From a virus: a stretch of 10,564 bases of DNA. The stretch is taken from UHGV virus genome UHGV-1326494; one strand, 5' to 3'. Of this stretch, positions 3,863-9,606 are shown piece after piece. Numbering within the stretch: position 1 is the stretch's first letter; each line of letters opens with the position of its first letter. The notes beneath the pieces were generated by a model, which was not told where the DNA came from, made no database searches, and saw only the letters and a list, made by a program, of their open reading frames with translations. The translations under genes and the position numbers were made by a program.

Positions 3863-3896
3863 CCAAATAAAAAGGCCTGCGATTATCAGCAGGCCT
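3863..3896 (-). terminator. Intrinsic terminator between helicase and ninB (tR2-analog position)
   Basis: Perfect 8-bp inverted repeat aggcctgc (3873-3880) / gcaggcct (3889-3896) with an 8-nt loop. On the minus-strand transcript the hairpin is followed by UUUUAUUU (complement of 3865-3872). Confidence 0.6.
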
Positions 3897-3921: not shown

Positions 3922-5298
3922 TCATACGTCAGCCCCTTGTGCATATCGTCTGCCACGCGCAGCAGGTGCATTTGATGCTGTGCAAATCTGTCTGGCTTCA
4001 TCCTGGTCACATGCAACAAAGTGTCCGTTGCAGAACCGCTGGTAAACCGTACCAAGTGAGCCAAAACGGTTTTTCGTCACGATGATTTCAGCAAATGGCG
4101 CGGCGCTACTGTTCTCGTCATATACCGCTTCCCGATAGAGCATGATGATTGAGTCTGCGTCCTGCTCAATGCTTCCTGAATCACGCAAATCTGCGTTTGT
4201 CGGGCGTTTGTTTGGTCGCTTCTCAACATCGCGCGAAAGCTGACTCAGGGAGATAACCGGTGTTTTCAGGTCTTTCGCCATCGCCTTCAGGCTTCCGGAG
4301 ATGTGAGCAATTGCGAGGTCGTTGCGGTCTGCTTTCGGCTTCTCAATCAGGCCAAGATAATCCGCCATGATGAGTGACAGGTTTGGATTTTCCTGTTTGT
4401 GCCGTTCTGCGATTGAGCGTATTTCTTCGACCGATAACCGCGAGGCATCGACTACCCATACATCCAAATCTGCAAGCTGACTCATGCCGTTAGCAACACG
4501 CGCCCAGCCTTCGTCATCCATCGATGCAGGATTTCGCAGCACGCTAACAGACATCCTCCCGGCGTTGGCAATGCTTCGCTCTGCAATCTGCAATGCGCTC
4601 ATTTCCATCGAGAAAATCAACACTCCGCGCCGGATGTCAGAACCAGGAATAACGCGGCTTGCAACGCCTTCGGCAATCTTCAGCGCCAGTTCGGTTTTCC
4701 CCATACCCGGACGAGCAGCGATAATCACCAGGTCTTCCGCGTTCATCCCTCCGGTGATGGCGTCAAGTTCTTCGATTCCGGTCTTCAGGGTATCTGATTC
4801 CTCTCCGTTCCTCAGACGCCTGTCAAGCGTGTCAGTGTAGTCAGTGATGATTTCCCCTAACCGTACAGGTTTAACCTCGTCACGGGGCTTTCTGATGACT
4901 GAAAGACGCTTTACAAGCTCGTCCATCGCCTGACTCGATGTATCGATGGTTCCGCTCTGAATTGGTTCACGCATTTCATCCATGATTTCCAGCACCAGAC
5001 GGCGGTGATAGTTATCCGCGACCATTCCGGCATATCCCTTCAGGTTTGCGGCACTCGGGCAGTTCTTACTGGTCATCAGGATTGACGTGAAATGCTCCTC
5101 TCCGCACGCCTCGGCAACCATCAGCGCGTCGATTAGGTTTCTGTTTCTCGCCTGCTTACGGATAACTTCGAAGGCTTTCCTGTAGAGCGGAATTGAAAAC
5201 GCTTCCGGCTCAAGCGTTGCCAGAACGTCACTGGCGGTTGGAGTTAATCCACCAATCAGCAGGCCACCGATAACGCTCGCTTCGATATCCTGTCTCAT
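3922..5298 (-). CDS. Replicative DNA helicase, DnaB family (458 aa; P22 gene 12-like)
   Basis: 458-aa ORF with a DnaB-like N-terminus ([12 protein letters not shown]), Walker [10 protein letters not shown] and a RecA-like C-terminal fold. ATGA overlap with the upstream O-like gene stop. Confidence 0.9.
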
Positions 5299-6298: not shown

Positions 6299-6577
6299 TC
6301 AGGCCTCAAAACTGTTGCAGCAGTCTTGAGGCTTTTCTTTTGTCAGCACCTTGGCTACTTTCTTTGCCAGTTCCGCCAATTCCTCGTCTTCAACACCCCA
6401 CTCCAGCACAGCCAGAAGCATGGCCATCTTTGGGATAAAACTGTCTTTCCATCGCGAAATTTGCGATTCATTAATCCCTAACGCGTCAGCAACCTTTCGC
6501 TGACCACGTACAGCAATTCGATTCAGGATGTTGCTTGTAATTGCATTCGCTTTCTTGCGAGTACTTGTAAGTTGCAT
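6299..6577 (-). CDS. c1: cII-like transcriptional activator (P22 c1-type, 92 aa)
   Basis: Start chosen at ATG 6575-6577 (MQLTSTRKKANAITSNILNRIA...GINESQISRWK...MLLAVLEWGV), which has the cII-family helix-turn-helix and conserved C-terminal motif. The longer track ORF (121 aa) would run through nutR. Confidence 0.8.
   Translation of the reverse strand: MQLTSTRKKANAITSNILNRIAVRGQRKVADALGINESQISRWKDSFIPKMAMLLAVLEWGVEDEELAELAKKVAKVLTKEKPQDCCNSFEA
6301..6343 (+). terminator. Plus-strand intrinsic terminator overlapping the 3' end of c1; candidate terminator of an oop-like antisense RNA
   Basis: Stem gcctcaa (6303-6309) / ttgaggc (6326-6332), with an inner actg/cagt sub-stem, followed by cttttcttttgt. 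Orientation is antisense to the PR operon. A possible extended -10 (TGTCATAAT, 6259-6267) lies about 65 nt upstream on the plus strand. Confidence 0.45.
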
Positions 6578-6600
6578 ATGTAAGTATTTCCTTAACAAAT

Positions 6601-6628
6601 AAGAAGTTATGCGCATCAAATTATGCGC
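6601..6628 (-). terminator. Candidate tR1-like partial terminator between nutR and c1
   Basis: Inverted repeat gcgcat (6611-6616) / atgcgc (6623-6628). On the minus-strand transcript it is followed by a moderately U-rich stretch (AUAACUUCUUAUUUGUU). The U-tract is interrupted, so this is weak. Confidence 0.3.
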
Positions 6629-6636
6629 GTTGTATT

Positions 6637-6679
6637 CCCGCATTTCGGCGGGAATGATGACCATGACTGTTAAAGAGCA
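6637..6679 (-). promoter_or_regulatory. nutR: boxA plus boxB hairpin downstream of cro
   Basis: On the minus-strand RNA, boxA UGCUCUUUAACA (complement of 6668-6679) is followed by a hairpin CCCGC-CGAAAU-GCGGG (complement of 6637-6652). The same boxA core and identical boxB occur at nutL on the other strand. Confidence 0.6.
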
Positions 6680-6685
6680 ATTTGC

Positions 6686-6871
6686 TTATGCCGCTTTGCG
6701 GTAAGCGCTTTCTTGATACTTCAGGGCGCCAGCTGTAACGACTTCCAGTCGATAGGCGTCTTTCTCTGGGATGACTTCCTTCCACTGAGAGACTGCTGCG
6801 TCGCTAATGCCTAACGCTTTAGCTACAGCACGCTGGGTTCCGAAGTGGTCGATAACATCTTTCTTGTACAT
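6686..6871 (-). CDS. cro: Cro repressor (P22 Cro-type, 61 aa)
   Basis: ORF track 61 aa, MYKKDVIDHFGTQRAVAKALGISDAAVSQWKEVIPEKDAYRLEVVTAGALKYQESAYRKAA, with a helix-turn-helix. Divergent from the repressor across the operator region. Confidence 0.9.
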   Translation of the reverse strand: MYKKDVIDHFGTQRAVAKALGISDAAVSQWKEVIPEKDAYRLEVVTAGALKYQESAYRKAA

Positions 6872-6885
6872 AGACTCGCTCCGAA

Positions 6886-6951
6886 ATTAAAGAACACTTA
6901 AATTATCCACTAAAGGAATCTTAAGTCAAGTTTATTTAAGATGTCTTAACT
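6886..6951. promoter_or_regulatory. OR region: three 18-bp operators of P22 c2 type between cro and the repressor gene
   Basis: Sites matching AnTnAAG-N4-CTTnAnT: 6886-6903 attaaagaacacttaaat, 6909-6926 actaaaggaatcttaagt, 6934-6951 atttaagatgtcttaact. Centre-to-centre spacing is 23 and 25 bp. The repressor ATG at 6952 has no Shine-Dalgarno, consistent with a leaderless PRM transcript. Confidence 0.7.
6902..6929 (-). promoter_or_regulatory. PR promoter for cro
   Basis: On the minus strand: -35 TTGACT (complement of 6924-6929), 16-bp spacer, -10 GATAAT (complement of 6902-6907). It overlaps operators 1 and 2 and lies about 30 nt upstream of the cro ATG. Confidence 0.6.
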
Positions 6952-7602
6952 ATGAAAACTCAATTGATGGGAGAGCGCATTCGCGCTCGGAGAAAAGAAC
7001 TCAAGATCAGGCAGGCCGCACTTGGAAAGATGGTCGGCGTGTCTAATGTTGCCATATCTCAGTGGGAACGCTCTGAGACAGAGCCAAATGGAGAGAATCT
7101 TCTCGCCCTGGCTAATGCGTTGAAGTGTTCCCCTGACTATCTGATGAAAGGAGAGGAAAGTCTTTCAAACATTGCCTATCACAGTAGGCATGATCCAAGA
7201 GGGTCATACCCTCTGATTAGCTGGGTGAGCGCAGGATGCTGGATGGAAGCTGTAGAACCATATCATAAGCGTGCAATAGATAACTGGTACGATACAACCG
7301 TAGACTGTTCAGAAGATTCGTTTTGGTTGGACGTGAAGGGAGACTCAATGACGGCTCCGGCCGGTCTCAGTATCCCTGAAGGAATGATAATACTCGTCGA
7401 TCCTGAAGTAGAGCCGCGTAACGGGAAACTGGTAGTTGCAAAGCTCGAAGGAGAAAACGAGGCAACTTTCAAGAAGTTAGTTATTGATGCAGGCAGGAAG
7501 TTTCTAAAACCACTTAACCCACAATATCCGATGATCGAGATCAACGGAAACTGCAAAATCATCGGCGTAGTTGTCGATGCAAAACTAGCAAACCTTCCAT
7601 AA
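6952..7602 (+). CDS. c2: Prophage repressor, P22 c2 / lambda cI family (216 aa) with HTH N-domain and LexA-like autocleaving C-domain
   Basis: ORF track 216 aa. N-terminal HTH (QAALGKMVGVSNVAISQWERSE) and C-terminal S24 peptidase-like domain (AG cleavage region, VKGDSM serine motif, a K near the C-terminus). Length matches P22 c2. Confidence 0.9.
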   Translation: MKTQLMGERIRARRKELKIRQAALGKMVGVSNVAISQWERSETEPNGENLLALANALKCSPDYLMKGEESLSNIAYHSRHDPRGSYPLISWVSAGCWMEAVEPYHKRAIDNWYDTTVDCSEDSFWLDVKGDSMTAPAGLSIPEGMIILVDPEVEPRNGKLVVAKLEGENEATFKKLVIDAGRKFLKPLNPQYPMIEINGNCKIIGVVVDAKLANLP

Positions 7603-7629
7603 GGGGGCATTCGCCCCTTTTTTTTATTT
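7601..7629 (+). terminator. Intrinsic terminator immediately after the repressor gene
   Basis: Hairpin aagggggc-attc-gcccctt (7601-7619) followed by a T-run (to 7629). It overlaps the repressor stop codon. Confidence 0.7.
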
Positions 7630-7649
7630 CCTTTAAAAATCAAAGCCAA

Positions 7650-7722
7650 ACTTAAGTTACGAAAGAAAATTTAAGTTTTCTTCAAAAATACTCTTGACCA
7701 TTAATTAAAGAGATCTTAAATT
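7650..7722 (+). promoter_or_regulatory. OL/PL region: PL promoter with an embedded operator
   Basis: -35 TTGACC (7694-7699), 17-bp spacer, -10 TAAATT (7717-7722). Operator-like site attaaagagatcttaaat (7703-7720) sits in the spacer. Further TTAAG/CTTAA half-sites at 7650-7680 are candidate extra operators. Confidence 0.6.
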
Positions 7723-7767
7723 TAAGCCATCAGCAGGACGCTGGTAGCCAAACGGAACAGATTGGCA

Positions 7768-7809
7768 GGCTCTTTAACATTGATGGGATTGTCCCGCCGA
7801 AATGCGGGA
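7768..7809 (+). promoter_or_regulatory. nutL: boxA plus boxB hairpin downstream of PL
   Basis: boxA GGCTCTTTAACA (7768-7779). boxB stem cccgc (7793-7797), loop cgaaat (7798-7803), stem gcggg (7804-7808). The RNA is identical to the nutR boxB transcribed from the opposite strand. Confidence 0.6.
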
Positions 7810-7980
7810 ACCAAAGAGTAGTTGGCTTTGGGGTGTGGTGAAGGGTTCATGGACGGGAATATGTCGCACGTAAAGCGGCGAGGCCTGCGGAACTATTGCC
7901 GAATTGAAGTCGGACGAAGCGGGTCGAAATGGGTCTCCCACCTACCACACCACCAAAGCTAATCATCTGAGGAACAAAAA

Positions 7981-8100
7981 ATGTTAGACATCATGACCAA
8001 CCCAATTCTCGGTGGTTTAGTTACCACATTCGCCATCTGCTTCGGTTTCACTATCTGGTCTGAAGTAGATGACTGGATGTGGGAACGCAAAAACAAATAA
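7981..8100 (+). CDS. Candidate small hydrophobic protein (39 aa) in the PL leader between nutL and the N-like gene
   Basis: ATG at 7981 preceded by GAGGAA at about 7 nt. MLDIMTNPILGGLVTTFAICFGFTIWSEVDDWMWERKNK has one predicted transmembrane segment. No homology claim. Confidence 0.3.
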   Translation: MLDIMTNPILGGLVTTFAICFGFTIWSEVDDWMWERKNK

Positions 8101-8140
8101 TCATCGTCACACAAGGATGTGTACCTTCCCGGAGGTCAAC

Positions 8141-8413
8141 ATGACAGTAGTCATTACATATCTGGCTGACGATAATGCCAGAAATCGCCGCAGAGCACGC
8201 AGACAGGCTCAACGTGAACAGGCAATGCAAGAGCAGCGACTGGCGCGAAAAATTGCGCTAAAGCTCTCTGGTTGCGTCAGAGCAGACAAAGCAGCATCAC
8301 TCGGAAGCCTTCGCTGCAAGAAGGCAGATGAATGCAGTGGAAGTATTTGCCTGCCAAACGTAGCTCTTTACGCGGCAGGCTACCGGAAATCAAAACAACT
8401 GACAGCGAGGTGA
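8141..8413 (+). CDS. N-like transcription antitermination protein (90 aa from the GGAGG-supported start; alternative 114-aa form from ATG 8069)
   Basis: GGAGG 6 nt upstream of ATG 8141. Arginine-rich motif NARNRRRARRQAQREQ near the N-terminus. The C-terminus (...VALYAAGYRKSKQLTAR) resembles what I remember of P22 gene 24. Located downstream of PL and nutL. Confidence 0.75.
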   Translation: MTVVITYLADDNARNRRRARRQAQREQAMQEQRLARKIALKLSGCVRADKAASLGSLRCKKADECSGSICLPNVALYAAGYRKSKQLTAR

Positions 8414-9237: not shown

Positions 9238-9606
9238 ATGTCAAACATCAAAAAATACATCATTGATTACGACTGGAAAGCATCAATAGAAATTGAAATC
9301 GACCATGACGTAATGACAGAGGAAAAACTTCACCAGATTAATAATTTCTGGTCAGACTCTGAATACCGACTCAATAAACACGGCTCTGTATTAAATGCTG
9401 TATTAATCATGCTGGCGCAACATGCTCTGCTTATAGCAATTTCAAGCGACTTAAATGCATATGGTGTTGTGTGTGAGTTCGACTGGAATGATGGAAATGG
9501 TCAGGAAGGATGGCCTCCAATGAATGGTAGCGAAGGAATAAGAATTACCGATATCGACACATCTGGAATATTTGATTCAGATGATATGACTATCAAAGCC
9601 GCCTGA
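9238..9606 (+). CDS. ea10: Ea10-like protein (122 aa)
   Basis: ORF track 122 aa with GAGGA upstream. AT-rich. Position between the N region and cIII, and the length, match lambda ea10. The identity is from memory and position, not a search. Confidence 0.6.
   Translation: MSNIKKYIIDYDWKASIEIEIDHDVMTEEKLHQINNFWSDSEYRLNKHGSVLNAVLIMLAQHALLIAISSDLNAYGVVCEFDWNDGNGQEGWPPMNGSEGIRITDIDTSGIFDSDDMTIKAA

Follow-up and report, generated by a model that had tools for sequence, protein, structure and literature searches.

It is established for phages lambda, P22 and phi21 that boxB, the hairpin of the nut site, tracks the N-terminal Arg-rich motif (ARM) of the antiterminator N. The boxB loops of the known types are listed here beside the loop found in phage HK620 and in the DNA analysed in this work, a stretch of 10,564 nt from virus genome UHGV-1326494, called the window throughout.

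lambda type: U-GAAGA/GAAAA-A
P22: U-GACAA-A (left), C-GACAA-C (right)
phi21: hexaloop or heptaloop, CUAACC / UCUAACC
VT2-Sakai: U-GAAA-A
HK620 and the window: C-GAAA-U hexaloop on a C-G closing pair

The RefSeq record of HK620, NC_002730.1 (genome paper: Clark et al. 2001, J Mol Biol 311:657, as cited in PMC2629481), carries the features 'nutL; putative N-utilization leftward' at 7753-7794 (GGCTCTTTAACATTGATGGGATTGTCCCGCCGAAATGCGGGA) and 'nutR; putative N-utilization rightward' at 9423-9468 (CGCTCTTTAACAGTCATGGTCCTCATTCCCGCCGAAATGCGGGAAT), both of which contain the elements of the window. Since the same sequences are annotated there, the nut sites of the HK620 class were already known, and those of the window are ordinary members of this class, present in many E. 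coli prophages. In nutL, boxA, spacer and boxB are identical in the two phages; the HK620 nutR differs in one spacer base and in the base ahead of boxA, and past nutR, one base in the loop of the second hairpin is the sole difference in that hairpin and the cII leader. The two phages differ between the nut sites, where HK620 has a 434/L-like cI and an extra gene (inter-nut distance about 1680 nt) and the window a repressor of the P22 c2 type (1138 nt), and also between nutL and N, an interval that is 224 nt longer in the window and contains a 39-aa ORF.

The immunity region and the early operons

Judged by its similarities, the window is part of a P22-like (Lederbergvirus), HK620-type prophage of E. 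coli. The region matches the P22-like E. coli phages IME10, N7, JEP4, CUS-3 and Gally at 98-99%, and its cII-cro-c2-PL part is approximately 84% identical to P22 and ES18. The genes and signals form a textbook lambdoid immunity region, with the order PR-cro-nutR-cII-O-helicase leftward and cI-terminator-PL-nutL-N rightward:

3873-3896, minus strand: strong intrinsic terminator past the helicase gene, placed as tR2 is in lambda; 8-bp stem with 6 G-C pairs, then UUUUAUUU
3922-5298, PR operon, left of cII: DnaB-type helicase gene
6299-6577, minus strand: cII (P22 c1-type), first gene past nutR; Pfam Phage_CII, E = 9.3e-45, over the full length of the 92-aa form
6686-6871, minus strand: cro; Pfam P22_Cro, E = 8.7e-28
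6902-6929, minus strand: PR promoter, -35 TTGACT, -10 GATAAT, inside the OR operators
6952-7602, plus strand: cI/C2 repressor gene, between the nut sites; HTH_3 and Peptidase_S24 domains
7601-7620, plus strand: intrinsic terminator ending the cI/C2 gene, from a terminator scan
7694-7722, plus strand: PL promoter, -35 TTGACC, 17-nt spacer, -10 TAAATT, from a promoter scan, within OL operator repeats of the P22 c2 type
8141-8413, plus strand: N antiterminator gene, 90 aa; Pfam N_peptide PF25694, E = 4.8e-16; phrog_271

Further left, a lambda-O-type replication gene accompanies the DnaB-type helicase gene. Both promoters are surrounded by operator-like repeats of the P22 c2 type (D1, I2, I4 and I5), and the PL sequence is the same in HK620, CUS-3 and N7. 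The candidate nut sites both lie in untranslated RNA: nutL about 40-80 nt past the PL -10 element and 331 nt ahead of the N start codon, nutR within the 108-nt interval between cro and cII, its boxA starting about 7-8 nt past the cro stop codon. On the PL side, the window holds weak terminator candidates only, as found with tools that cannot predict Rho-dependent terminators. Automated gene callers, as well as the CUS-3 and N7 records, run cII across nutR (ORF 6299-6664); recognition of nutR corrects this over-extension.

The N gene has a GGAGG Shine-Dalgarno sequence 7 nt upstream, and its PHROG match is described as 'anti-termination protein N-like'. The protein is 97% identical to HK620 N, and its identity to the N proteins of HK620, mEp213 and JEP4 is 97-99%. 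Its ARM, DDNARNRRRARRQAQREQA, occupies residues 9-27 and aligns with the ARMs of other phages on xAxxRRRxRR, but where lambda has Trp18 the aligned residue is not aromatic; the N peptide carrying the ARM is MTVVITYLADDNARNRRRARRQAQREQAMQ, and the RNA of the boxB hairpin is UUCCCGCCGAAAUGCGGGAA. A sequence search of the PDB with N gave chance matches to RNF168 only and no solved structure for the HK620-type class.

The inverted repeat, boxA and the hairpins

The 19-nt sequence TCCCGCCGAAATGCGGGAA occurs at 7792-7810 on the plus strand, and a pattern search of the window found its exact reverse complement at 6635-6653. The repeat finder returned the same pair (repeat I1, 19 nt, 100% complementary), and none of 200 dinucleotide-preserving shuffles contained any match. 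Upstream of each copy in the transcript sense, and separated from the hairpin by a spacer of 12 nt in both cases, stands the boxA sequence GCTCTTTAACA, exact at 7769-7779 (plus) and 6668-6678 (minus); these are the only two matches in the whole window with one mismatch tolerated, and two or more matches were found in 2 of 200 shuffles. The four elements are the following:

7769-7779, plus strand: nutL boxA, GCUCUUUAACA, within the annotated HK620 nutL feature
7792-7809, plus strand: nutL boxB hairpin, 6-bp stem 7792-7797/7804-7809, loop CGAAAU at 7798-7803, stem covarying in relatives
6668-6678, minus strand: nutR boxA, GCUCUUUAACA, with the preceding base UGCUCUUUAACA, within the annotated HK620 nutR feature
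6634-6655, minus strand: nutR boxB hairpin, 8-bp stem, loop CGAAAU (ATTTCG on the plus strand at 6642-6647)

An earlier note on this DNA, made from the letters alone, had described the repeat near PL with its reverse complement downstream of cro, each behind a boxA-like sequence, and had named the two sites nutL and nutR; the scripted search bears out the pair and both boxA copies. Its coordinates for the second copy, 6634-6655, are those of the 8-bp nutR hairpin, of which the exact 19-nt copy is a part. The string it gave has 20 letters and one mismatch on the plus strand, where position 7791 is G and not T; owing to this base, the nutL stem has 6 bp and the nutR stem 8 bp. The hairpins are thus identical, as the note had it, in the loop and the inner 6 bp, and not in stem length. 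Since the stems are self-complementary, the inverted orientation rests on the asymmetric loop (CGAAAT versus ATTTCG) and on the flanking boxA, and the two give concordant orientations.

The elements at 7792-7810 and 6635-6653 are most probably the nutL and nutR of a P22-like, HK620-type temperate phage (we put the probability at roughly 0.92). Several features by which nut sites are recognised were found here: positions in the early leaders, boxA 5' of boxB, a hairpin with a conserved loop, a cognate ARM-bearing N downstream of nutL, and covariation of boxB with the ARM. The assignment made in the earlier note also agrees with the orientation of the sites, the order boxA-spacer-boxB, the Arg-rich N-terminus encoded downstream, the comparative data and the HK620 annotation. 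The sites fix the direction and the start of both early operons, and place the prophage in the HK620 antitermination class, which aids annotation. A scan of the whole window against Rfam (E at most 1) gave no match, and so no curated RNA family over the nut sites or the N leader.

Both hairpins are G+C-rich and lie early in their transcripts, and HK620 has tR1 annotated directly past nutR, so that they might be read as terminators or attenuators opening each early operon instead of sites for loading N. Folding predicts hairpins with 6-nt loops and energies of -10 to -13 kcal/mol (the z-scores of these short hairpins taken alone are modest, -0.7 to -1.8), followed by no U-tract, the next bases being ACCAAAGAG and UACAACGCG. 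The terminator scan called neither hairpin, and terminators are not marked by an invariant loop on a covarying stem or by a boxA at a constant 12 nt upstream. An intrinsic terminator was thus rejected as extremely improbable.

In rrn leaders boxB precedes boxA (boxB-boxA-boxC) and no phage N protein takes part. An rrn-like antitermination, in which a consensus boxA and host Nus factors act alone and the hairpin and N are dispensable, would suit the full-length boxA GCUCUUUAACA, which we take to be closer to the rrn consensus than lambda's CGCUCUUA and which also serves sites of the phi21 type. The elements of the window, however, stand in the phage order, boxA and then boxB, with an N gene downstream, and on these grounds an rrn-type leader was rejected. 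Moreover, phages with the CGAAAU hairpin nearly all retain an N gene with the matching ARM; the joint retention argues that both are under selection, and the rrn-like alternative is very unlikely.

As nut sites, the elements would be expected to work in the manner described for lambda, P22, phi21 and H-19B (PMC3526286), on which N binding, Nus dependence and terminator read-through are modelled here. When PL and PR fire, each nascent RNA would bear the boxA, the 12-nt spacer and the boxB with its CGAAAU loop. The Arg-rich N-terminus of N would bind the boxB loop, host NusB-NusE (S10) would attach to boxA and NusA to the spacer; tethered through the looped RNA, the complex would stay on RNA polymerase together with NusA and NusG, and the polymerase would then resist Rho-dependent and intrinsic terminators. 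To the right, the terminators overcome would be a tR1 region past nutR and ahead of cII and the intrinsic terminator at 3896-3873, for which read-through by nutR-loaded polymerase is likely; to the left they would be terminators beyond N.

Co-occurrence with N and covariation of the stem

Nearly all of some 200 viral contigs, with different immunity modules among them, carry the hairpin pair together with this N ARM. Among 80 IMG/VR loci, defined as those encoding an N at least 95% identical, the exact 18-nt core occurs once per strand upstream of N in 74. The distance between the sites ranges in these loci from 1134 to 1723 nt, with clusters at about 1136, 1213, 1678 and 1722 nt, and the sequence ahead of the nutR boxA, the 3' end of cro, has three unrelated forms, which indicates that different immunity modules lie between identical nut sites. 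Substitutions are present in the spacer and in the loop of the next hairpin, and none in boxB. Three of the exceptions have too little upstream DNA; two others (L040 and L060) have nutL and no nutR within 3.5 kb upstream. Another is mEp213 (L058/L087), which has its own lambda-type N and lambda nut sites and, in addition, a further N, of the HK620 type, that follows a truncated nutL; an N gene can therefore persist without a working site.

The reverse search, by the boxB core, gave 120 loci in viral contigs, and NARNRRRARRQ is encoded downstream in 96 of them. Twelve exceptions were examined: five have close variants of the ARM (DNTRNRRRARR, NARNRRRARRR, DTAKNRRRERR and NARNRRRARRAL among the variants seen), and most of the others are nutR sites that lack an N gene within reach; the exceptions beyond these 12 mostly have little DNA downstream. 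As the closest relatives are near-identical, much of this co-occurrence reflects shared ancestry; independent evidence comes from the divergent relatives and the chimeras alone.

Other stems around the CGAAAU loop were sought with a degenerate scan. Its number of matches was about that of our rough chance estimate, and it yielded further divergently oriented pairs of sites in phages with a more distant N, e.g., MTIVMTILASDNARNRRRAKRAAERE and MTVVYTLSPNSRTRRKARRATQRE. Fifteen distinct sequences from the scan that form no hairpin were discarded, and the hairpin-forming sites of four loci (L228, L229, L260 and L261), which have no flanking lambdoid genes, were left out of the covariation count. 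In the 14 distinct sites validated by their context, the CGAAAU loop and its closing C-G pair are invariant, and six of the eight stem pairs show changes on both sides, such as G-C to A-U at the second pair; the stems CTCCCTAC/GTAGGGGC and GTCTCCAC/GTGGAGAT are examples. Paired cells make up 88%, versus 36-60% when the 3' partner is slid, and none of 500 shuffles reached the covariation score. The compensatory substitutions include G-U pairs. The pattern supports the view that boxB is maintained as an RNA structure.

Chimeric N proteins and boxB loop classes

Four groups of N proteins share the centre LARKIALKLSGCVRADKAASLGS and combine two ARMs with two C-termini. The N of phi21 (lambda imm21) has the phi21 ARM and a lambda-like C-terminus, that of HK629 the phi21 ARM and an H-19B/P22-like C-terminus; the N of CUS-3 and N7 joins the HK620 ARM to the lambda-like C-terminus, and the N of the window and HK620 joins it to the H-19B/P22-like one. 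The pair with the phi21 ARM carries the phi21 boxB (CTCAACCTAACCGTTGAG) and the groups with the HK620 ARM the CGAAAU hairpin, boxA and flanks being common to all four. From this two-by-two set it follows that boxB tracks the first 33 or so residues of N, i.e., the ARM, and nothing else in the protein, a pattern in agreement with the statement on gp24 in the phage L paper (PMC8022706). These natural chimeras lend support to a further proposal of the earlier note, that the element would define the antitermination specificity of the phage.

The comparison with phi21 and HK629 shows how narrow the exchange is. Both share boxA and its flanks with the window (GGCTCTTTAACAT at nutL, TTGCTCTTTAACAGT at nutR) together with the N centre, and HK629 also the C-terminus of N; the difference, limited to ARM and boxB, lies in the ARM GTAKSRYKARRAELIAERR and in the boxB CUCAAC-CUAACC-GUUGAG (nutL) and CACC-UCUAACC-GGGUG (nutR). 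Such joints could also suggest that the repeat acts as DNA, either by binding a protein or by serving as a recombination 'boundary sequence' on both sides of the immunity module, and that the RNA fold is incidental: the cI-N interval of CUS-3 is annotated 'bsq5; boundary sequence', and mosaic joints lie at or inside the nut sites, HK629 and the window diverging exactly at boxB past the shared boxA and the mEp213 joint falling inside boxB. A role at the DNA level nevertheless has little probability and was rejected, since the orientation to transcription is constant, with boxA 5' and CGAAAU as the loop in RNA, the compensatory changes in the stem include G-U pairs, which are relevant in RNA only, and boxB is linked to the ARM of N. 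Use of the sites as recombination joints is compatible with their function as nut sites, and is probably a by-product of it.

With P22 and ES18 the window shares the position of nutR and its CCGC/GCGG inner stem, and N shares with their gp24 the Pfam family and a C-terminus of one type (LPxVALYAAGxRKSKQxTAR). The P22 ARM is GNAKTRRHERRRKLAIERDTI, and its loop is GACAA, flanked by U/A in nutL and by C/C in nutR, whereas that of the window is GAAA flanked by C/U; in nutR, the inner stem is kept and only C-GACAA-C is replaced by C-GAAA-U in DNA otherwise 84% identical. The Stx phages VT2-Sakai and 933W have the GAAA loop core, the RRRARR core of the ARM (GTAASRRRARRANLQ) and the last 25 residues of N (92% identical) in common with the window. 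There, however, GAAA is a true tetraloop with a U-A closing pair on GGC/GCC or CGC/GCG stems, and boxA and spacer (GCTCTTTAAAC, GCTCTTTGTAAC) are unlike those of the window. Lambda, along with the first N of mEp213, resembles the window in architecture, genomic positions and the alignment of the ARM on xAxxRRRxRR; it differs in its boxA, in the GCCCU-GAAGA/GAAAA-AGGGC pentaloop boxB and in Trp18 of N.

Comparison with the known N-specificity classes, suggested in the earlier note, thus sets the boxB loop of the window apart from the lambda, P22, phi21 and VT2-Sakai types. The GAAA might take a GNRA fold over a C-U mismatch. We give even odds to the proposal that the HK620-type ARM, D-N-A-R-N-R-R-R-A-R-R-Q-A-Q-R-E-Q, and the C-GAAA-U hexaloop on a C-G pair form a further N-boxB specificity class, orthogonal to those of phi21, P22 and lambda, perhaps also to the U-GAAA-A of 933W/VT2-Sakai, and widespread in enterobacterial prophages; the literature searched contained no biochemical, structural or antitermination work on the HK620-type boxB. 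If the class is orthogonal, the HK620-type ARM and boxB would provide one more RNA-peptide pair for tethering, and the P22 nutR C-GACAA-C, C-GAAA-U and the VT2 U-GAAA-A would make up a natural series in which to follow how the recognition of a GNRA-like loop drifts. Of 5,426 complete E. coli genomes, 109 contain at least 80% of the stretch from nutR to N, and 1,741 contain parts of it.

Mosaic N gene and the nutL-N interval

The N gene of the window (8141-8413), encoding a putative antiterminator, is a mosaic of three parts. Residues 1-33, with the arginine-rich motif, are of the kind seen in HK620, CUS-3, and N7, the centre, LARKIALKLSGCVRADKAASLGS, is common to phi21, HK629, and CUS-3, and the C-terminus, CSGSICLPNVALYAAGYRKSKQLTAR, is as in the N proteins of the H-19B/VT2-Sakai/P22 type. 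The N proteins of CUS-3 and N7 have a lambda-like C-terminus instead, with the breakpoint lying near window position 8330.

The interval between nutL and N (window 7811-8140) is an insertion hot-spot. In 52 of the 75 relatives (the HK620 type), 125 nt separate the boxB core from the start of N; the others have 212-579 nt, and the window has 349 nt. Within the interval a long-range stem is found at about 7821-7962, in which GGCUUUGGGGUGUGGUG pairs with CACCACACCACCAAAGCU (z = -2.66). Its ends correspond to the ends of the mEp213 leader that precedes the lambda-type N; in the window the stem is followed not by N but by a small ORF:

7981-8100: hydrophobic ORF of 39 aa, phrog_7482, present in 8 loci fetched

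Additionally, a small hairpin, CCAAAG-N10-CUUUGG, follows the nutL boxB (window 7811-7840); its P22 counterpart is CCAAAC-N7-GUUUGG, and the change is compensatory. After the hairpin comes GGGGUGUGGUG, which we take to resemble boxC.

Variant and possible nut sites in other viral genomes

mEp213 (NC_019720.1, 2016-3773), like the viral contig L058 grouped with it, encodes two N proteins. The first is of the lambda type and is accompanied by the lambda nutL and nutR; the second, located 1.2 kb downstream, is of the HK620 type (the class with the CGAAAU-loop boxB). The nutL of the latter is truncated: it is devoid of boxA, and the left arm of its hairpin is replaced, GCCCTCCGAAATGCGGGA. The loss of boxA together with the replaced boxB arm thus places a recombination joint inside boxB.

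Two other viral contigs, L040 and L060, carry the HK620-type N and nutL, but in the 3.5 kb upstream the opposite strand has no recognisable nutR or boxA. In four more, L228, L229, L260, and L261, a boxA-like GCTCTTTAAAA is followed by a perfect hairpin, GGCCUAC-CGAAAU-GUAGGCU, the loop of which is identical to that of the window boxB. Homologues of the window cI, cro, cII, O, and N are absent from their vicinity, and these hairpins may be nut-like sites of an unrelated phage group.

The nutR-cII junction and the terminator after the helicase gene

An ATG at 6664, within the nutR spacer, is in frame with cII and opens a 121-aa ORF running across boxB (6299-6664, minus strand). This long form is annotated in the CUS-3 and N7 records, while those of HK620 and P22 give the equivalent short form of 279 nt. 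The Pfam CII match covers the 92-aa form (start 6577) from its first residue. The long form probably results from mis-annotation and hides nutR. Past the nutR boxB lies another hairpin:

6611-6628, minus strand: second hairpin, GCGCAU-AAUUUG-AUGCGC, 5 nt 3' of the nutR boxB

It is kept, with varying loops, in HK620, P22, and ES18, and may be part of tR1 or of the control of cII expression. The 76-nt stretch that holds boxB, this hairpin, and a third one preceding the cII ribosome-binding site has a fold z of -4.2.

Further along the minus strand, a terminator separates the gene of a DnaB-type helicase, located directly before it, from the nin-like genes, a location corresponding to that of lambda tR2:

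3873-3896, minus strand: strong intrinsic terminator, AGGCCUGC...GCAGGCCU, then UUUUAUUU
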